Shown piece by piece: positions 1,207 through 23,830 of a stretch of DNA of 55,443 nucleotides (its first letter is position 1; each line of letters opens with the position of its first letter). The DNA is from Patescibacteria group bacterium. Its GTDB lineage: Bacteria; Patescibacteriota; Microgenomatia; UBA8517. A model generated the notes under the pieces. The model did not search any database and was not told where the DNA came from. It worked only from the letters and a program-made list of their open reading frames with translations. The position numbers were made by a program, and so were the translations under genes. The DNA is taken from NCBI GenBank assembly GCA_036835125.1, contig DAITMO010000001.1, positions 1-55,443 of the forward strand, given 5' to 3'.

Positions 1207-2238
1207 CTGTCTGTTACTTGCTACGATTTAATACGTAGTCTCACAATCGCTTGTGAGGTCGGACTATATCTTTATCCTAAAAATTGAGGAAGATTATAAA
1301 TCTTGGCATTATTACCATAAGATGATAATGCCAGTGATAAAACTTGGTTCTTTTCCCAACCCTGCCAATAGGCAGAATGTTGAGTTATTTTAACTCCTTT
1401 GATAAAACCAACTTTTTCATAAAATTTTTGCAAGTCTTCTCTTTTTTCAATTCGAAGCTTATTATCTTTTAGTAAAAGTCTTGCACGAATACCTAAAATT
1501 TTTAATAATCTTAAGTAATCTTTTTGGAGTTGCGGATGTTTGCAAGCTAAAAATACACTACGAATCAAATGCTTATATCCATTTCTATGATTCGCTACAT
1601 ATAAATTAACTCCCCCATCACAACTAAAAGCTGCTTTTAAAAAAACCGATAATAGATTTTTACTCGTTGTATTATTAAATGGTATTTTTGTAGCGGGATA
1701 GATTACCCCATCTTTTACCGTTTTATAAGCAAGAGTTCTAAAAGTACCATATTTGGAATTTAAAATATTTCCACAATATCCACTATCAACAATTGCTTTA
1801 TAAAAAGGTTTACCATTAATTATTTTTTCAGATATTCTAATTCTTTTGTTTTCTAATCCAAAAACATTAATCATACATTTTCTAAACGTATTTATGATTT
1901 CAGATGAAGTGTTGCTAAGATAAAATCTCCAACAATTCTCTGATTTTTTGGATAAGCATCCATCAGTATATAAAATACCTAATAAAGTTGCTTCATCATT
2001 ACTCACTTCTCCTCGCTTAGGATATTCGACATGTAGTCTCTGAGGGTTCCCCTTTCGAGGTCTTCCCTGCTGATTGACTGCACTTATAGCATTTTCAGTT
2101 AAAGAAATCGGCATTAATTCAGTATTACCCGAATATAATACGAAGTCAATAACTAGCTTAAGATACTCAGTTATTCCAGCATATAGTCGAATTTTTTTGC
2201 CATTAATTACTTAATGGAGGAACTAGAGTTTAAACCCT
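1207..2238 (-). mobile_element. Group I intron in 16S rRNA after U788, about 1032 nt
   Basis: Removal restores GGGAU|UAGAGACCCC, with U at the 5' splice site and a terminal G. IGS CUCUAGUUCCU pairs with 5' exon AGGGAU (P1) and 3' exon UAGAG (P10). Canonical P (AUAUGCUGGAAU), Q (AAUCAGCAGG), R (CUCAGAGACUACA) and S (AAGAUAUAGUCC) elements are present. Confidence 0.93.
1272..2114 (-). CDS. Intron-encoded double-motif LAGLIDADG homing endonuclease (start uncertain: ATG 2114 or GTG 2006)
   Basis: Motifs ATLLGILYTDG and VFLKAAFSCDGG; the bulk lies between R and S (P8 loop). Confidence 0.88.
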   Translation of the reverse strand: MPISLTENAISAVNQQGRPRKGNPQRLHVEYPKRGEVSNDEATLLGILYTDGCLSKKSENCWRFYLSNTSSEIINTFRKCMINVFGLENKRIRISEKIINGKPFYKAIVDSGYCGNILNSKYGTFRTLAYKTVKDGVIYPATKIPFNNTTSKNLLSVFLKAAFSCDGGVNLYVANHRNGYKHLIRSVFLACKHPQLQKDYLRLLKILGIRARLLLKDNKLRIEKREDLQKFYEKVGFIKGVKITQHSAYWQGWEKNQVLSLALSSYGNNAKIYNLPQFLG

Positions 2239-4377: not shown

Positions 4378-6189
4378 TCAGCCAGCTCCTCCCCCACCTC
4401 CACCTCCACCACCTCCACCACCACCAGAAAAGCCACCACTACTGCCCACACCTGAGGCTCCATAGCTTCCAAATGAGGACGAAAGTGCACTAAAAGAAGA
4501 ATTAAAACTTGTCATTGCGCTTATACTGCTACCTTTTAAATAGAAAGCTGAATATATTGGTGAGTGTGATGAAGCAGTATTACTAAAATCGATTGGTAGT
4601 TCTGAAAGAGCTTTAGTAGATATTCCAAGCACACTACCATAAACCAAGTATTTTTCCCACAAAATAACTGAATCTATTGGGTATCTTTTTGTGACCGAAT
4701 AGTCTTTAAGCCATTTTTTGAAAGCTTTCCATCCTGAAAGTTCTACCCCACCCCATTTACTTTTCTTCCGCATTGAGGCAACCGAAACAAAAAACAAAAT
4801 GTCACATATAAATAAAATTACAAAACCAAAAGGCAATAAATTAAAAGCACTAGAAGCTAAATAAACAATGTTTATGATTATCCAAAAAATAACTTCAAAA
4901 ACACTTTTATCTTGCATATCCAGGCTTGTTTTTTCATAGAAGCCCAAATCTTCAAGACCTTTTTTGGCTTTTTCGGTATAACTTTTCCAAAACTCACGAG
5001 TTCTTGTGGGATTAAACCTTGGTATGTTTTTTATTTCATCAAAATCAATTTTTGATCCTACTTTTGCTTTACTACCGAAAAATAGAAAATCTAATAATTT
5101 ATTCTCAATAAAAGTAACTTTATCTTTATATGAATCTGAGTTTAATACTAAATAATATTTGTCCTTATTTCCAAAAAGTGTCTTTTTACCATTTTTTAAA
5201 TACTCTATCTTTAAAACCTTTTTTCTTACTAATTCCAAAATTGTTGCAACAACAGATTTTCCAGTTGGGACACCATTTAATATGGTTTCTACATATACTG
5301 GCTCCAAATCACTCGGTGGTTCATGAAGAGTACCTGCAAGGTTTGTTTCAGGAATAGGATCGTCTTTTCCAAACTTACGCCAACGAATAAACCAAATAAT
5401 CGCCCGATAAACAAACAAAATCAGGATTAACGATATAGCAATTGTCCAAAACACATTTCGTCTTTCTTCCTTTCCACTATATGATTTTTCTTCATTTAGA
5501 ATTGAATCAAGAGTTTCATTGCCCAAGATTGCATTAGTAAATGAAGTGTTTAGTGGGAAAACAATTCTGACTTCAAATAATGTTTCTGGTGGTAAATTGG
5601 AGGCACTAAAATCTACTTCATTATTTGTAACTATATAAATATTTCCATTTAGTGGTCCATGCCCAAATGCCCAAATTTCATCATCGGGTACAGAGTATGG
5701 TAGAAGTACCTTTGCAGTTACCTCCCCCACTCCTTTTTGCCACCCATCTCCAATTAGTTGCCAATAGAATTCTGAATTATCTTTGTTGTTAATAATTGCA
5801 TTATCAATTTTGTACTTGAGAGTAAATATTTTTTGCTCACTCAAAGCTTTGTAATACCATTTGACATAGAGTTTTCCCTCACTCTCTTCAATACTGAAGG
5901 TTTTTGGCAAGCTTGATGTATTTTTGGAATATTCCGTCTCTCCTTCCCATATCTCAAAATTGGAAATTTTTGATTTACCGGTATTAATCCATTCATCTGC
6001 CCACGAAAAACTCCCATCAAAATCATACGTTCTTATCTCAGTAACGTTTGCTGATCCATCATTGTTTATCTGTACATTAAAAGTGGCGGAAGAAATCGAG
6101 TAATCCTTGGCTAGGATACTAGCTGGAGAACTAACAAAAAAGAAAAGTAGACCAAAAAAAGAGAATAAAACCTTTAGACATATTTTCAT
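4378..6189 (-). CDS. DUF2207 family membrane protein
   Basis: Signal peptide, YSISSATFNVQINNDGSANVTE, EFYWQLIG..W, WEKYLVYG..LG, Gly-rich C-terminal tail GGFSGGGGGGGG. Confidence 0.85.
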   Translation of the reverse strand: MKICLKVLFSFFGLLFFFVSSPASILAKDYSISSATFNVQINNDGSANVTEIRTYDFDGSFSWADEWINTGKSKISNFEIWEGETEYSKNTSSLPKTFSIEESEGKLYVKWYYKALSEQKIFTLKYKIDNAIINNKDNSEFYWQLIGDGWQKGVGEVTAKVLLPYSVPDDEIWAFGHGPLNGNIYIVTNNEVDFSASNLPPETLFEVRIVFPLNTSFTNAILGNETLDSILNEEKSYSGKEERRNVFWTIAISLILILFVYRAIIWFIRWRKFGKDDPIPETNLAGTLHEPPSDLEPVYVETILNGVPTGKSVVATILELVRKKVLKIEYLKNGKKTLFGNKDKYYLVLNSDSYKDKVTFIENKLLDFLFFGSKAKVGSKIDFDEIKNIPRFNPTRTREFWKSYTEKAKKGLEDLGFYEKTSLDMQDKSVFEVIFWIIINIVYLASSAFNLLPFGFVILFICDILFFVSVASMRKKSKWGGVELSGWKAFKKWLKDYSVTKRYPIDSVILWEKYLVYGSVLGISTKALSELPIDFSNTASSHSPIYSAFYLKGSSISAMTSFNSSFSALSSSFGSYGASGVGSSGGFSGGGGGGGGGGGGGAG

Positions 6190-18012: not shown

Positions 18013-18834
18013 TTATTTGAGAGCCTCATCAACTGCGGACTGCATATCAGAAAAGCTGTATGCACCTGCAAAATTGGTTGTGTTAACAAAGAAGCCTGGT
18101 GTTCCTTGGATTCCTAAAGATATCGCTAAATCCTGATCACTTCCAAGTCTTGCATCATATTTTCCACTATCAAGACAAGATTTCATCGCTCCTGTATCAA
18201 CCACACTCTTTAAGAAATTAGCCATATCTCCTGATTTTGTTGTGTCATTTCCAATAACCAATGTGGCATTTTTCCCTTGTGAATCAGCACCGTTTTGTAT
18301 GGCATAACCTGGATCACTCATCAAAAGAGATTTTGCTTCCCAGAACTTACCTTGTTCATTAGCACAGTAAAGAGCTTTCATTGCCATTTCTCCGTTTCCA
18401 TGTCCAGGATAATAAATATAAACAAATGAAGCTTTTCCTTCTTTTACAAGCTTTTCCATTTCGGCAACTGGAGGGTTATATGTTCCACCCTCACTTACAT
18501 ATTTGAATCTTGCTCCAACTGCTTCAGCCAGTTTTGAGTTATGTCCACCTGCAATGTGACAATATGGACAAGAAGGATCACTCATTTCAACAAAAATTAG
18601 TTTACTGTCTTTGTTTCCAAACTTGATTAAATCCTTATCAAACAATCCTTTTATTGTGTCTATAGAAACCTCTACCTGTGTTGTTTCTGGGGTTGTTGCA
18701 GTATTTGCTGTTCCCTTTTCTATATTTTTTACTTTTTGAAATAATGTGCCTGAGAAGAAGGCAAGACCAATTGAAATCGCGACTAAAGCTGGAATAAAAA
18801 ACTGTTTTATTCCTTCTGAAGATTTTTCTGACAT
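18013..18834 (-). CDS. Membrane-anchored DsbA family thiol-disulfide oxidoreductase
   Basis: TM anchor, SDPSCPYCH, GIQGTPGFFVN, GAY. Confidence 0.9.
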   Translation of the reverse strand: MSEKSSEGIKQFFIPALVAISIGLAFFSGTLFQKVKNIEKGTANTATTPETTQVEVSIDTIKGLFDKDLIKFGNKDSKLIFVEMSDPSCPYCHIAGGHNSKLAEAVGARFKYVSEGGTYNPPVAEMEKLVKEGKASFVYIYYPGHGNGEMAMKALYCANEQGKFWEAKSLLMSDPGYAIQNGADSQGKNATLVIGNDTTKSGDMANFLKSVVDTGAMKSCLDSGKYDARLGSDQDLAISLGIQGTPGFFVNTTNFAGAYSFSDMQSAVDEALK

Positions 18835-18921: not shown

Positions 18922-19884
18922 TTATTGAGATTCTTCCAAATACTTTAATGCTTCCATCGCTGCAATACATCCCATACCTGAGGCTACAATTGCTTGTTTG
19001 AAATGTTTATCCATCACATCCCCTGCTGCAAATATTCCTTTGATGTTTGTTCCACAATGCCAATTTGTTTGATCAATATATCCTTTTTCATCTGTTTTTA
19101 TTACATCTTTGAATGCTTCACTTGATGGTTTATGCCCTATTGCAATAAATAGTCCATCAAAAGGAACTTCTGAAGTTTCACCTGTTTCATTGTTTTTTAA
19201 AGTTAAGCTCTCAAGTTTATTCTCTCCATTGGCGTAAGTTACTTCCGTATTCCACATAATTTTGATCTTGGGATTATCTTTTATCTTTTCCTGCATGGCA
19301 GCTGACGCTCTAAACTCATTTCTTCTATGAATTATAGTTACCTCAGAAGCATATTTGGTCAAAACATGTGCTTCTTCCATTGCACTGTCCCCCCCTCCAA
19401 CTACTGCAACTTTTTTATCCTTGAAGAATGGTGCATCACATGGTGCACAAGAAGAGATACCACGTCCTATTAGTTCTTTTACTCCAGGTGCATCAAGCCA
19501 AAGAGTTTGGGCACCTGTTGCAATTATTATAGATTTGGCTTTATAAATTTTGCCTCCTGCTTTAATTTCAAATGGAGATTTTGAAGAATCAATGCCTTCA
19601 ACCTTGGTGGGCACAAATTCTGCTCCAAAACGTTCTGCTTGAGACTTCATGTTGTTCATGAGGTCAGCTCCCAATATCCCTTCAGGAAAACCAGGAAAAT
19701 TATCAACAGTTGAAGTCAGCATGAGTTGCCCTCCCCAGGATTCTCCTCCAAAAATAATTGTTGAGGCAGCTCCTCTAGTTGTATAGACAGCTGCTGTAAA
19801 TCCTGAAGGACCGGAACCTATTATAGCAACATCCCATGGACCTTCTTCTTTCTCTGGTTTTGATGCAAAAATTTGTTTATCCAT
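18922..19884 (-). CDS. trxB: Thioredoxin reductase; likely start 19884
   Basis: IIGSGPSG, CAPCD redox motif, VVGGGDSAMEEA, FAAGDV. Confidence 0.95.
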   Translation of the reverse strand: MDKQIFASKPEKEEGPWDVAIIGSGPSGFTAAVYTTRGAASTIIFGGESWGGQLMLTSTVDNFPGFPEGILGADLMNNMKSQAERFGAEFVPTKVEGIDSSKSPFEIKAGGKIYKAKSIIIATGAQTLWLDAPGVKELIGRGISSCAPCDAPFFKDKKVAVVGGGDSAMEEAHVLTKYASEVTIIHRRNEFRASAAMQEKIKDNPKIKIMWNTEVTYANGENKLESLTLKNNETGETSEVPFDGLFIAIGHKPSSEAFKDVIKTDEKGYIDQTNWHCGTNIKGIFAAGDVMDKHFKQAIVASGMGCIAAMEALKYLEESQ

Positions 19885-19975
19885 ATTCTTTATAGAAACA
19901 GTCAATCGGTCATCAGTCTATCAAAAAAATAATAAACCGAAAACCGAATGACAGTTTGCTCTAACTAAAAGAGCA

Positions 19976-20266
19976 TTACACCGTTGGAGGTGTTGTGGCT
20001 GGAGGCATTTGTCCTCCACCCATATCTCCCTGGTCTGGTGTTGGTTCAACTGGTGCTACTGGTGCTTCAGGAGCTGGCATTGCCGGCTCTGGTGTAGCAA
20101 CTGGCTCTGGCATAACTGGTGCAACTGGCTCTGGTGTTACCGGAGGAGTTGGCATTGTTGGTTCAGCTGGTACTCCTGCATTAGGATCGGTAGCTGGTGC
20201 TCCCATTCCTGGATCAACAGCAGGCATAGGATTCATTGTTGGGTCTTGTGTTTGATTTGGATCCAT
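19976..20266 (-). CDS. Pro-rich low-complexity protein
   Basis: PEPVA/PAP repeats; start overlaps the trxA stop (TAATG coupling). Confidence 0.7.
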   Translation of the reverse strand: MDPNQTQDPTMNPMPAVDPGMGAPATDPNAGVPAEPTMPTPPVTPEPVAPVMPEPVATPEPAMPAPEAPVAPVEPTPDQGDMGGGQMPPATTPPTV

Positions 20267-20592
20267 TAAGATGTCACCCCCTTTTTAATTAACTCTTCAA
20301 AAGCTTCTTTTCCCGAAAAACCTGATACTCTACCAATTTCCACTCCACCTTTAAATAAAATGGTTGTGGGAATAGACATCACTCCTAATTTTTGTGCGTT
20401 TACCTGATTCTCATCAATATTAAGTTTCACCATTATTACTTTATCTTTATAACTTTCGGAAAGTTCTTCCAAGACAGGTCCGGCCATTTTGCATGGACCA
20501 CACCATGGAGCCCAGAAATCAACTAATACTGGAGTTGTGTTTTGAAGTACTTTAGTCTCAAAATCTTGATCTGTTATATCAAAAGTGGCCAT
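20266..20592 (-). CDS. trxA: Thioredoxin
   Basis: VDFWAPWCGPC, MSIPT. Confidence 0.97.
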   Translation of the reverse strand: MATFDITDQDFETKVLQNTTPVLVDFWAPWCGPCKMAGPVLEELSESYKDKVIMVKLNIDENQVNAQKLGVMSIPTTILFKGGVEIGRVSGFSGKEAFEELIKKGVTS

Positions 20593-20640
20593 TTTCGTTA
20601 TGAACCACTATACCTTTTCACGAGGATCTGCGTCAATAGT

Positions 20641-20913
20641 CTAATTGATTTGTATCTTCTCCCCTTTCACTAAAGCTCCTGCAACTTTCTTTCTGGCTGA
20701 AGATAGAATCCTTGCAAAAGTAGGTTGAGATATGCTCATTTTCTCTGCAGCTTCTTTCTGAGACAAATCATCCATATCATGGTATTTTAAGGCAGAAAAT
20801 TCATCCTTACCCAATAAAACGCCAGACAGACCCTTTATAGAGGGTTCATCTGGCTTAAAACAACTACAAATTGGTTTACAACACGATTTACGTGGTAATT
20901 TTGGCCTGCCCAT
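20641..20913 (-). CDS. DUF134 (UPF0251) HTH protein; likely start 20913
   Basis: MGRPKLPR, CC..CSCFKP, DEFSALK..D...LSQKEAAEKMSISQPTFARIL.SARKKVA.AL. Confidence 0.9.
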   Translation of the reverse strand: MGRPKLPRKSCCKPICSCFKPDEPSIKGLSGVLLGKDEFSALKYHDMDDLSQKEAAEKMSISQPTFARILSSARKKVAGALVKGEKIQIN

Positions 20914-20926
20914 ATATCTTTTATTT

Positions 20927-21010
20927 CTACTCACAACCGCACTTACAATCTTTACCACACTTGCACTCCCCACCGCAACAAGAACACATATTTTTCTTAT
21001 TTTTTTTCAT
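20927..21010 (-). CDS. Putative metallothionein-like microprotein (27 aa, 8 Cys; not in the ORF track)
   Basis: MKKNKKNMCSCCGGECKCGKDCKCGCE*; SD AAGGAGGTGA 7 nt before the ATG; promoter upstream. Confidence 0.75.
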   Translation of the reverse strand: MKKNKKNMCSCCGGECKCGKDCKCGCE

Positions 21011-21038
21011 TAATCTCTCACCTCCTTTCCCTACATTT

Positions 21039-21070
21039 ATGAATATATATTCATTATTCCCTTTTGTCAA
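21039..21070 (-). promoter_or_regulatory. Promoter TTGACA-17-TATATT overlapped by the perfect palindrome ATGAATATATATTCAT (operator 1)
   Basis: -35 at 21065-21070, -10 at 21042-21047, palindrome at 21039-21054 with TGAA-n6-TTCA core. Confidence 0.75.
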
Positions 21071-21091
21071 TGTCTTTGTTAAAATCATCTT

Positions 21092-22093
21092 GTGGACATA
21101 TTTATGGCCTTCATAACTGGTTTAACTACAGGGGGAATTTCTTGTTTTGCTGTACAAGGTAGTCTTCTTATGTCTTCAATTATAAGAGAGAAAAATGAGA
21201 ATAGCTCGAAAAGATTAGTGGTTAATAGTTTAGTTTTATTTCTTTTAGCAAAACTATTAGCTTACACAATACTTGGACTATTGCTCGGAATTCTTGGAAG
21301 CTTACTTACAATACCTCCTAAAATACAAGGGTTGTTTCAAATAATAATAGGAGTATATTTATTGATTGTTACTCTAAACCTTATCAACATTCACCCCTTT
21401 TTTAAGAAATTTGTTATTACTCCCCCAAAATTTGTTTTTAGAATTTTAAAAAACCAGTCAAAGGATAATTCTGTTTTTACTCCCATATTTCTTGGTCTTT
21501 TAACAATTCTAATCCCTTGTGGAATTACTCAAGGAATGATGCTATTGGCAGTTTCTGCCGCTTCCCCACTTACATCCCTACTTTTGATGTTTTCTTTTAC
21601 TTTAGGGACAATACCAATCTTTTTTCTAATTGGTCTTGCCACAACTGAACTTCTTAATAAGAAAGCTTTTACTTATATTGCTGCATTAGTAGTAGGAATA
21701 TTAGCCATAATTTCTATCAACAGTGGCCAGATCTTAAGAGGGTCAGCTCATACAATTCAAAATTATTGGAGAGTTGCCTTTGATTATAATAAAGCTTTAG
21801 AAAAAACTGCTCCAATCATTGACGGTTATCAAGAAGTTACTATTACGGTAAAGCCGCATGGATATGAGGCTTCGGCAAATATACTAAAGATTGATGTTCC
21901 TGTAAAACTTACATTGGTCACAAACTCAATTGCAAGTTGTTCTAGAGCATTCACAATACCCGATTACAAGATATCTAAAGTTCTACCTGTAACTGGTGTG
22001 GAAACAATTATTTTTACTCCTGAAAAACTAGGGAACATAACTTATACATGTAGCATGGGTATGTATTCAGGCTATTTTGATATTATCAACTAA
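21092..22093 (+). CDS. TauE/SafE (DsbD_2-like) membrane protein fused to a C-terminal cupredoxin-like domain
   Basis: GLTTGGISC.A..G, KLLAYTILG, LIPCG..Q, F.LGTIP; C-terminal SC..F.IP....YTCSMGMY. Confidence 0.85.
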   Translation: MDIFMAFITGLTTGGISCFAVQGSLLMSSIIREKNENSSKRLVVNSLVLFLLAKLLAYTILGLLLGILGSLLTIPPKIQGLFQIIIGVYLLIVTLNLINIHPFFKKFVITPPKFVFRILKNQSKDNSVFTPIFLGLLTILIPCGITQGMMLLAVSAASPLTSLLLMFSFTLGTIPIFFLIGLATTELLNKKAFTYIAALVVGILAIISINSGQILRGSAHTIQNYWRVAFDYNKALEKTAPIIDGYQEVTITVKPHGYEASANILKIDVPVKLTLVTNSIASCSRAFTIPDYKISKVLPVTGVETIIFTPEKLGNITYTCSMGMYSGYFDIIN

Positions 22094-22094
22094 T

Positions 22095-22301
22095 ATGACA
22101 AAGAATTATAAAATTAATGGCATTGATTGTCCAAATTGTGCCAAGATGATTGAGGTTGAACTTGAAGATTGTGGTATTAAATGTTCCTGTTCGTTTGAAA
22201 AAGAGATGCTTAAGGTTGAGGGTAGTCATAATATAAAAAAGATTAACAGTATTATTTCTAAACTGGGATGTAACATATCAATCCCTAAAGAAGTGATTTA
22301 A
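22095..22301 (+). CDS. Heavy-metal-associated (HMA) domain protein, copper-chaperone-like
   Basis: YKINGIDCPNCAKMIE. Confidence 0.8.
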   Translation: MTKNYKINGIDCPNCAKMIEVELEDCGIKCSCSFEKEMLKVEGSHNIKKINSIISKLGCNISIPKEVI

Positions 22302-22320
22302 TCTATATCAATTCTCTCTC

Positions 22321-22351
22321 TTTACAATATCTTATTTCGAATATATATTCA
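22321..22351 (+). promoter_or_regulatory. Promoter TTTACA-17-TATATT overlapped by operator 2 (GAATATATATTCA)
   Basis: Same 13-nt core as operator 1, in the same position over the -10 box. Confidence 0.7.
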
Positions 22352-22389
22352 TTATATATCAGTTTTCTTGACATGATAAAATAATAAGC

Positions 22390-22788
22390 ATGAATCATTT
22401 AAAGGGTAACAAATTTACAGTTATTACTTTATTAGCGACCATTATTATCATCATTGGTGGGGTTTTATTGTTTTCAAATAGCTCTAAAGATGCTTCTGAA
22501 CCAACCCCAAACATTCCTTCTGATTCATATGTTTATTTCTATGGTCAAGGTTGTACTCATTGCAAAAATGTAGAAGAATTTATGAATAGTTGGGAGAAAA
22601 AAGATTCAATCAATCTTACAAAATTGGAGGTTTGGTACAACAAAAATAATGCTAATATATTTGCGAGTGAAGCGGAAAAATGCGGGGTGTCTAAAAATGA
22701 TTTAGCAGTTCCCTTTTTGGTTACTCCCGATGGAAAATGTATGATGGGAGACACTCCGATTATTGATCATTTTAAAAATTTACAATGA
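22390..22788 (+). CDS. Membrane-anchored glutaredoxin/thioredoxin-like protein
   Basis: TM anchor, FYGQGCTHCKNV, cis-Pro motif AVPFL, second Cys pair. Confidence 0.8.
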   Translation: MNHLKGNKFTVITLLATIIIIIGGVLLFSNSSKDASEPTPNIPSDSYVYFYGQGCTHCKNVEEFMNSWEKKDSINLTKLEVWYNKNNANIFASEAEKCGVSKNDLAVPFLVTPDGKCMMGDTPIIDHFKNLQ

Positions 22789-23321
22789 ATATTTTTACAA
22801 AAAAAATTACAGTCTTTTTCTCAACTCTATTTTCATTATTCACTGTTTTTTACTTAGTATTTGCCAACAAAATTTCTGCCATGTGTCCTGTATGTACAAT
22901 TGCAGTTGGTGCAGGACTTGGACTTTCAAGATGGCTTGGAGTTGATGATGTAATCTCAGGTATATGGATAGGTGCGGTTTTACTATCTTCTGCGCTCTGG
23001 TTCTATAATTGGCTTGCGAAAAAATATTCTAAACTTGGTTCTAGGTATTTTCTTGCCCTTTCAATAATTGTAACTTTTGGTATTGTTCTCATTCCTCTAT
23101 TAAAGACAGGAGTAATTGGACACCCATTTAATACAATTCTTGGGATAGATAAGCTTGTTTTTGGAAATATATTAGGAGCTTTAACCTTTACTTTAAGCAT
23201 TTGGGCAGACAAAAAGGTGAGAAAAATAAAAGGTAAACAGCTTTTTCAATTTCAAAAAGTTGTTTTTCCTGTAGTTTTACTTATACTAGTTAGTGCTGTG
23301 ATGTTTTTCATAACTAAATAA
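22785..23321 (+). CDS. Hypothetical membrane protein with CPVC motif
   Basis: Signal-like N-terminus, ISAMCPVCTIAVGAGLGLSRWLGVDD, about 4 TM segments; ATGA coupling. Confidence 0.75.
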   Translation: MNIFTKKITVFFSTLFSLFTVFYLVFANKISAMCPVCTIAVGAGLGLSRWLGVDDVISGIWIGAVLLSSALWFYNWLAKKYSKLGSRYFLALSIIVTFGIVLIPLLKTGVIGHPFNTILGIDKLVFGNILGALTFTLSIWADKKVRKIKGKQLFQFQKVVFPVVLLILVSAVMFFITK

Positions 23322-23830
23322 TGGCCATAAAAACATACAAAGATTTATTAAAAAGAGTTGAGAACTTCAAGATTGAGCAAAGCTTGGATTTATCTTCTGG
23401 TGAAGATCTTTCGATTGGAATAATGAACTTAATTTCTATTGAAGAACATCTCTTCTATACATATGGAAAACTCAAAAAACATAAATATTTAGATCTTTTA
23501 AATGAAGTTAGGCTCATGAGAACTGAGCTTTTAAAGGGTATTATCAAAGACTATGAAGGAGAGGTTTGGTGTATAAGTAAACACCTCTTGGCGGCTAGTA
23601 TGAGAGTTATGGAGGTTGGAACAAAGGAACTTAAAAAAGGAAACAAGAAGAAAGCTGAAGAACTGTTCCAAAAATCATACAAACTATATACTCTATTTTG
23701 GGGTTTGAACCTTTCTGAACAATCAGAATCAGGCAAAAAAGTTGACACAACAAGCTTAAGAGGTGGATCAACTGTATTCTCAAAACTAAACAGTATCATT
23801 CAAAAATCGCTTGATTGCTGCAGAGAATAA
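23321..23830 (+). CDS. Hypothetical helical protein with His/Cys motifs
   Basis: IEEH, WCISKH, C-terminal DCCRE; TAATG coupling. Confidence 0.7.
   Translation: MAIKTYKDLLKRVENFKIEQSLDLSSGEDLSIGIMNLISIEEHLFYTYGKLKKHKYLDLLNEVRLMRTELLKGIIKDYEGEVWCISKHLLAASMRVMEVGTKELKKGNKKKAEELFQKSYKLYTLFWGLNLSEQSESGKKVDTTSLRGGSTVFSKLNSIIQKSLDCCRE

Follow-up and report, generated by a model that had tools for sequence, protein, structure and literature searches.

A cysteine-only, metallothionein-like peptide family encoded beside putative DUF134 regulators in Patescibacteria

Introduction

The characterised bacterial metallothioneins (MTs) treated in reviews are SmtA/BmtA and MymT only (PMC7558416 among these reviews). 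MymT of Mycobacterium tuberculosis, which is involved in copper resistance and predicted to hold several Cu(I) in a thiolate core, was first overlooked because it lay in a nonannotated open reading frame (ORF) (PMC7558416). The present work concerns a 27-amino-acid (aa) Cys-rich peptide, and the operon that it heads, in a stretch of 55,443 nucleotides from a Patescibacteria group bacterium (assembly GCA_036835125.1, contig DAITMO010000001.1, positions 1 to 55,443 of the forward strand), hereafter the window. A sequence-only reading of the window had taken this ORF for a possible MT of an undescribed family in the candidate phyla radiation (CPR), and its description of the ORF and of its signals is accurate. 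We consider it rather probable that the ORF belongs to a new family of bacterial MT-like peptides, predicted to be cytosolic and to bind metal through thiolates, most likely Cu(I) and possibly Zn or Cd, under the control of a DUF134 repressor with a Cys-bearing arm.

MymT is a small, cytosolic, Cys-rich bacterial peptide, as the window family is predicted to be, but at 4.9 kDa it has about twice the length and comes from an actinobacterium, whereas the window family goes with a putative DUF134 regulator and a trxA/trxB operon. SmtA/BmtA (PF02069, MT family 14) and SmtB resemble the locus in their arrangement, as in both cases the MT gene adjoins the gene of a presumed metal-sensing repressor and an operator-promoter region lies between divergent units. 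However, SmtA has about 56 aa, His and Cys ligands, and a zinc-finger-like fold with aromatic residues, whereas the window peptide has neither His nor aromatics. Furthermore, SmtB is a repressor of the ArsR/SmtB family, whereas the putative regulator in the window is a DUF134 protein, whose gene follows that of the peptide in one operon. DeepMetagenome (Li et al. 2024, PMC11705764) provided hundreds of metagenomic MT-like sequences, and 20 of the 23 tested raised Cu/Cd tolerance in E. coli. That set was drawn from called proteins, averages 10.6 % Cys and 13.3 % His, and led to the conclusion that prokaryotic MTs prefer His (PMC11705764). The window family likewise consists of short, unannotated MT-like ORFs of metagenomes, but it has about 30 % Cys and no His, and it lies mostly below the length limit of gene callers.

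Results

The peptide gene and its signals

The elements on which the analysis rests are the following (positions in the window; the stop codon is included in the peptide gene).

20927 to 21010, minus strand: gene of the 27-aa Cys-rich peptide, first cistron of the operon; product MKKNKKNMCSCCGGECKCGKDCKCGCE
21018 to 21027, minus strand: Shine-Dalgarno (SD) site AAGGAGGTGA, 7 nt from the ATG
21042 to 21070, minus strand: sigma-70-like promoter TTGACA-17-TATATT, matching 11 of 12 consensus positions
21039 to 21054, no strand assigned: perfect 16-bp palindrome ATGAATATATATTCAT, overlapping the -10 box; putative DUF134 operator
20641 to 20913, minus strand: DUF134 (UPF0251) helix-turn-helix (HTH) protein, second cistron; PF02001, E 1.2e-18, Sigma70_r4_2-like HTH

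The translation of MKKNKKNMCSCCGGECKCGKDCKCGCE places Cys at positions 9, 11, 12, 16, 18, 22, 24, and 26, which gives the pattern CxCC-x3-CxC-x3-CxCxC, with 8 Cys in 18 residues and 8 in 27 overall (30 %). The absence of His and of aromatic residues, the strong SD at 7-nt spacing, the promoter, the operator (which stays putative), and the first place in the operon had all been proposed from the sequence, and each is found as described; the DUF134 gene starts 13 nt past the peptide stop. The range 20927 to 21030 that had been given for the gene is in fact the ORF plus the SD site. It had also been called unannotated, which needs correction: the ORF appears in public protein sets as a 53-aa product without a name (P0001) that begins at a wrong upstream start, 21088, and runs through the promoter.

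The ORF is a real gene. Within the six frames of the window there is a single stretch with at least 8 Cys per 19 residues, and none arises in 100 dinucleotide shuffles; together with the conservation described below, this rules out a chance ORF. A fusion or frameshift with DUF134 was also rejected, since the frames of the two genes differ in both loci checked (the window and L081; L numbers stand for loci of other contigs and P numbers for proteins) and the peptide persists where DUF134 is missing. Every family member has GGAGGTGA, GGGGGTGA, or GGTGGTGA within the 18 to 40 nt inspected 5′ of its ATG, and the TTGACA element is found in L001 and L081 too.

Conservation, selection, and census of the family

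A first set of 80 DUF134 loci was taken from species-representative genomes, mostly of Microgenomates-type Patescibacteria. Among these, a Cys-rich ORF is present only in the closest one, L001, whose DUF134 is 69 % identical to that of the window, and it occupies the identical slot, with the palindrome and the gene order of the window. The sequence-only reading had named beforehand a search upstream of DUF134 genes as a check. This was made on 8 of the 30 closest DUF134 relatives (56–74 % identity), picked without regard to the peptide and coming from eight different samples (L251–L258). All eight have a Cys-rich ORF of 23 to 46 aa, 2 to 26 nt 5′ of DUF134, preceded by GGAGGTGA or GGGGGTGA, with the exact palindrome 33 to 70 nt farther upstream. 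Gene finders called this ORF in only three of the eight, leaving five uncalled. With the wrong start in the window, this bears out the expectation that gene callers miss the family.

Homologous ORFs are found in the same slot in 14 syntenic lineages. Searches of protein databases, for which the 53-aa extended ORF was placed in the alignments, gave four called relatives of 30 to 39 aa, all unnamed (P0002–P0005). A scan of metagenomes with DNA patterns added, among the matches listed, the syntenic loci L153, L177/L210, L182, L211, and L232. Default tblastn, with SEG and composition statistics on, returns no matches for such Cys-rich queries, even at their own loci. The census of at least 18 distinct peptides is a lower bound. 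These 18 have 23 to 46 aa and 6 to 16 Cys (24–36 %), and F, W, Y, and H are absent from every one of them. Their common features are about 30 % Cys, an N-terminus rich in Lys and Glu, and repeated CxC-G-K-D modules. The contigs are of the CPR/Patescibacteria type, as had been anticipated, and as far as these sequence comparisons go the family is previously undescribed and belongs to one clade of Patescibacteria/CPR.

The closest homolog of the window peptide is that of L251, MRMKKNTCECCGKECKCGKDCKCSCNK, likewise of 27 aa. The window, L251, L253, and L255 have one and the same Cys spacing, 1-0-3-1-3-1-1. In the window subfamily all eight Cys columns are invariant, with both TGT and TGC in use in three of them, while the non-Cys positions mostly differ. 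In a second subfamily (MADKEEKKK) the proportion of synonymous differences (pS) is 0.65–1.2, hence saturated, against 0.01–0.12 for nonsynonymous differences (pN), and all indels are multiples of 3. Taken together, conservation, the contrast between pS and pN, in-frame indels, and fixed Cys columns are strong evidence that the peptide is translated and under purifying selection.

Errors of annotation extend to the neighbouring gene. The IVNV-rich N-terminal extensions of several called DUF134 proteins (P0014, P0029, and P0030, and L087 4131–4448) are the peptide ORF read out of frame, and the DUF134 of the window is called publicly as 105 aa, where 90 aa would be right.

Relation to known metallothioneins

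The family matches no MT model significantly. PF02069 has no match to the window peptide or to five other members (E ≤ 10), NCBIfam gives no matches for the family, and Pfam yields only sub-threshold similarities to Metallothio_2 (E 0.4) and Metallothio_5 (E 0.15–1.5). A profile search of the PDB has a sole match, wheat Ec-1 (2KAK), which is not significant (E 0.1). The family profile, run against 1.84 billion representative proteins, retrieves only P0002 and P0004 at E ≤ 1e-3. Profiles of short Cys-rich sequences have low power, so that distant homology to known MTs could escape them. A full-text search of the literature collection used found no paper with the motifs of the family and none linking metallothionein to the candidate phyla radiation; the papers naming both metallothionein and Patescibacteria are unrelated by title. 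The distinctness from SmtA/BmtA that the sequence-only reading had asserted therefore holds for models, structures, and papers alike.

By its composition (less than 10 kDa, rich in CxC and CC, free of aromatics and His) the family fits the definition of an MT, and judged by these searches it lies outside all known MT sequence families. Wheat Ec-1 shares CxC-G-x-x-C-x-C segments with it, but this plant Zn-MT is built from two domains and has His among its ligands. Short fungal Cu-MTs, of the Neurospora crassa or Agaricus type, have about 25 aa and 7 Cys. We take them to resemble the window peptide in size, in a Cys content near 30 %, in a CxC-x3-CxC core, and in the lack of aromatics and His. 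The window peptide, in contrast, is bacterial, has a Lys-rich N-terminus and a G-K-D module, and comes first in a polycistronic operon. The likeness is probably convergent.

The putative DUF134 regulator and operator

The DUF134 protein of the window scores 67.9 bits on PF02001, against a gathering cut-off of 27. All 14 syntenic loci have the palindrome ATGAATATATATTCAT without a mismatch. If up to one mismatch is allowed, it occurs within 700 nt upstream in 36 of 76 DUF134 loci (for example at L002 3608, L046 2710, and L061 3976), two Methanocellales archaea among them. This amounts to 36 occurrences in 53 kb upstream of DUF134 against 3 in the remaining 520 kb of these loci, an enrichment of about 100-fold; the chance expectation is 0.11 per window at up to two mismatches. 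Because it is exact in the 14 loci and enriched upstream of DUF134, phylogenetic footprinting points to ATGAATATATATTCAT as most likely the autoregulatory operator of DUF134. It is probably also a general operator of the DUF134 family across Patescibacteria, of which we found no earlier description. A second operator-like site, TCGAATATATATTCAT, lies in the window at 22337 to 22352 (no strand assigned), with two mismatches, where it overlaps the -10 element of a promoter-like site (TTTACA-17-TATATT) that precedes the operon starting at 22390; no second copy of the palindrome was seen in the 14 syntenic loci scanned.

The N-terminal arm of the DUF134 protein in the window is Cys-rich (RKSCCKPICSCFKPD), and so is that of all 30 closest relatives. 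DUF134 proteins encoded after a Cys-rich peptide, and only these, all have three to five Cys within the N-terminal 24 residues, and ordinary ones have zero to two. In several, that with the arm KRCNCCKPACVCFKPE among them, the Cys follow the CxCC-x3-CxC spacing of the peptide. From this co-variation we suggest that the arm senses through thiolates and is matched to the peptide.

Ordinary DUF134 genes are preceded by a DUF5320 gene (PF17253), by a gene for a CPxC-ribbon protein, or by neither. In such loci the slot between palindrome and DUF134 is occupied in L034 (3738–3998), L004 (3726–3932), and many others, with a DUF5320 match at E 8e-13. As a rule, then, DUF134 is accompanied by a small protein that contains Cys. 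A literature search on DUF134, UPF0251, COG1342, and DUF5320 found no functional study.

Peptides next to a copper-type ATPase

In four loci (L085, L154, L155, and L160) the gene of a P-type ATPase is directly followed by that of a homologous peptide of 30 aa, which has a strong SD to itself. The match of this ATPase to TIGR01511 (copper-translocating) reaches 643 bits against a cut-off of 397, and the protein has the motifs CPC, YN(x4)P, and MAASS, which we take to be the P1B-1 signature for Cu(I). In L085 a Cupredoxin_1 protein is encoded 5′ of the ATPase, and all that is left of DUF134 after the peptide is a 5′ remnant of 11 codons (MSRPKIPQKTC...). L155 has, in this order, ATPase, peptide, trxA, Pro-rich ORF, and trxB, so that trxA is kept after the peptide even where DUF134 is lost. 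In L154 the peptide also precedes trxA. No DUF134 was detected on the contigs of L154 and L155, which are short. That the peptide is kept where the regulator is lost speaks against its being no more than a leader peptide, or an obligate partner of DUF134. C-[SG]-M-x-M, plausibly a Cu(I) site, is found in the cupredoxin-like domains.

Other families of small ORFs with CxCGKDCxC, apparently unrelated, occur on high-GC contigs (L146, L168, L149, L163, L171, L197, L198, and others). One combines a signal peptide with CKKTGKNCPMNDKKECNCGKDCGC and is transcribed away from a P1B ATPase in L146 and L168; in L163, another (MKCKACGETxCxCDKGGxCNCGKDCACAKK) closely follows an ATPase. In L142 (40 % GC) a 48-aa ORF with 16 Cys and a strong SD (186–332) is followed by a VKOR homolog (399–830) and a DsbA-like protein (827–1453). 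Viral contigs with CxCGKDCxC were rejected as relatives, being unrelated proteins with the exception of a few MT-like ORFs. Viral contigs include an MT-like 23-aa peptide, MNCNCNSCTCGKDCGCTSCTCSK (L129, 3819–3893), and a 117-aa protein with 36 Cys (L100, about 5140–5500).

The operon and the divergent genes

The remaining genes around the peptide are listed below, those on the minus strand following DUF134 and those on the plus strand being divergent.

20266 to 20592, minus strand: thioredoxin TrxA, third cistron; PF00085, E 6e-30
19976 to 20266, minus strand: Pro-rich 96-aa ORF between trxA and trxB, conserved
18922 to 19905, minus strand: thioredoxin-disulfide reductase TrxB; TIGR01292, 385 bits, cut-off 343
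18013 to 18834, minus strand: membrane-anchored DsbA-like thioredoxin-fold protein; PF13462, E 5.5e-16, and PF01323
21092 to 22093, plus strand: membrane protein with DsbD_2 (UreH-like) transmembrane (TM) part and Cupredoxin_1 domain; PF13386, E 9e-27, and PF13473, E 2e-8
22095 to 22301, plus strand: heavy-metal-associated (HMA) protein of 68 aa, motif GIDCPNC; sub-threshold match to PF00403, E 5.8e-4
22390 to 22788, plus strand: TM-anchored Trx-like protein with a CTHC motif, conserved partner of the locus
22785 to 23321, plus strand: 178-aa membrane protein with an N-terminal CPVC, conserved partner without family match
23321 to 23830, plus strand: 169-aa protein, conserved partner without family match

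The DsbD_2-cupredoxin gene, which the public call begins at 21104 and whose cupredoxin domain has the motif C-S-M-G-M, is syntenic in L001, L081, L232, and L251–L257. The three partners from 22390 to 23830 adjoin the peptide locus in L177, L182, L211, and L232 too. The interval between trxA and trxB has a conserved low-complexity, Pro-rich ORF of about 55 to 96 aa, also seen in L001 (4681–4908) and L155 (1087–1254), with no Pfam or other family match.

Elsewhere in the window, a 16S rRNA match on the minus strand (1114–2966) covers model positions 9 to 873 yet spans 1853 nt. The insertion contains a 280-aa ORF (1272–2114, minus strand) with a LAGLIDADG_3 domain (PF14528, E 2e-10) and resembles an rRNA intron that encodes a homing endonuclease. 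Such introns are common in CPR bacteria.

Discussion

A proposed model of metal buffering

The MT-like reading would work as follows. A DUF134 repressor with its Cys-rich arm (CC-x3-CxC) would occupy ATGAATATATATTCAT over the -10 box. A soft metal, most likely Cu(I) but possibly Zn or Cd, or else the oxidation of thiols, would engage the arm and release the repressor. The operon would then be transcribed, and the strong SD would make the peptide abundant. Its eight thiolates would wrap a small metal-thiolate cluster and so buffer the metal, and the co-transcribed TrxA and TrxB would hold the thiols reduced. At the membrane, the metal would be handled by the divergent DsbD_2-cupredoxin and HMA proteins or, in other genomes, by the CopA-type ATPase. 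As a further step, and one that we put forward only tentatively, Cys-armed DUF134 proteins could be a new class of thiolate sensors of metal (or of metal and redox state), in which case peptide and sensor would be matched to each other, pass metal between them, and so determine the threshold of induction.

A role in metal handling is favoured by the HMA protein and the cupredoxin-like domain encoded next to the peptide, by the Cu-type ATPase of other genomes, and by the P1B ATPases beside the other small ORFs with the CxCGKDCxC motif (L146, L168, and L163). Several observations weigh against this reading. Context and composition are the basis on which we infer that the peptide binds metal, which metal this would be, and that DUF134 is a repressor. 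The partners in the operon are mainly thiol-disulfide enzymes (TrxA, TrxB, and the DsbA-like protein), a context that the sequence-only reading had overlooked and that keeps a redox role alive. Because of these partners and of L142, such a role fits equally well in part. No CopA-type ATPase was found in the window, and the HMA match reaches 20.6 bits, against a Pfam gathering score of 24.8. Copper in particular is questioned by the small HMA orthologs (L251–L257, L001, and L081 among them), which have G[ML]DCxxC in 9 of 11 lineages, L232 having GMHCASC. The Asp before the first Cys is presumably the ZntA/ZiaA-type signature for Zn, Cd, and Pb, and the metal is therefore ambiguous, since the ATPase context and C-x-M-x-M speak for Cu(I). 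Finally, the similarity between the window and the MADKEEKKK subfamilies is no better than that to unrelated Cys-rich ORFs, and the case for their homology is made by synteny and by intermediates such as L232.

Alternative explanations

The same thioredoxin context is the basis of an alternative in which the peptide has no physiological metal and serves as a poly-thiol (a sacrificial one or a buffer), or else as a sensor or decoy of disulfide stress, reduced by TrxA/TrxB in organisms that lack glutathione. The operon (peptide, DUF134, trxA, Pro-rich ORF, trxB, dsbA-like) speaks for such a function, the partners of the locus carry CxxC motifs, the peptide-trxA order persists in L154 and L155 (in the latter with the Pro-rich ORF and trxB) where DUF134 goes undetected, and the 16-Cys ORF of L142 stands ahead of VKOR and DsbA. 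However, this leaves unexplained the HMA protein, the C-x-M-x-M of the cupredoxin, and the Cu-type P1B ATPase upstream in four loci, and fixed CxC spacing with G-K-D modules is typical of cluster-forming MTs, not of simple thiol buffers. As known MTs combine both roles, it is also in part a sub-case of the MT-like reading, and as a separate explanation we regard it as unlikely, though a serious contender. A little less likely still is that the peptide serves DUF134 chiefly as a regulatory partner and not as a bulk buffer. It would then give metal to the sensor or accept it, or act as an anti-repressor, and so tune the threshold of the sensor, paralleling the DUF5320 and CPxC-ribbon proteins. 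The genes of these usually lie between palindrome and DUF134 in ordinary loci. The strict co-occurrence of the Cys-rich arm with the peptide, their common CxCC-x3-CxC spacing, and gaps of 2 to 26 nt that suggest translational coupling point the same way. Yet the peptide stays intact, with its SD and under purifying selection, where DUF134 is absent or reduced to 11 codons (L085, L154, and L155), and variation in length and in Cys number (6–16) would be unusual for a specific protein-protein partner.

Two further explanations are poorly supported. A short ORF, first in its operon, enriched in one amino acid, and 2 to 26 nt from the next cistron recalls a cis-acting leader peptide or upstream ORF, whose translation would regulate the downstream genes through Cys-tRNA supply or ribosome stalling while the product itself did nothing. 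This is very improbable: there is no terminator-like site within 20000–22500 and no gene of cysteine biosynthesis downstream, the non-Cys residues, including G-K-D, and the exact Cys spacing are conserved with a ratio of nonsynonymous to synonymous rates (dN/dS) far below 1, the ORF occurs in a different operon context, after the ATPase, and the very strong SD argues for high output. We give even less credence to a precursor of a ribosomally synthesised and post-translationally modified peptide (RiPP) of the SCIFF/ranthipeptide-like or sactipeptide-like kind, to be modified or secreted. Small Cys-rich precursors of 30 to 50 aa are typical of several RiPP classes, but no radical-SAM or other peptide-maturase gene is near the ORF in the window, no radical-SAM, cyclase, protease, or exporter gene lies within about ±2–4 kb in the syntenic loci examined, and the peptide lacks both a leader/core architecture and a signal peptide, its Cys filling the whole sequence.

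Implications

The interest of the family is tempered by the prior evidence that metagenomes hold many MT-like ORFs. It nevertheless reveals a blind spot of annotation, since five of the eight relatives sampled are uncalled and others are mis-started or read out of frame into DUF134. The peptides are of a length suited to chemical synthesis, and they may serve as compact metal-binding tags or as parts for bioremediation. If the metal-binding reading is true, a Cys-only composition of eukaryotic type, in peptides down to 23–27 residues, makes this a different kind of bacterial MT, and one from CPR hosts, whose metal and redox physiology is almost unknown. The locus also offers a regulator-operator-effector hypothesis for DUF134, a widespread family without known function. 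If the peptide and the Cys-armed sensor are indeed a matched pair, this would give DUF134/UPF0251 a first function and a first operator (ATGAATATATATTCAT, in bacterial and Methanocellales loci), and the DUF5320 proteins found in the equivalent slot would be analogous ligand-handling partners.

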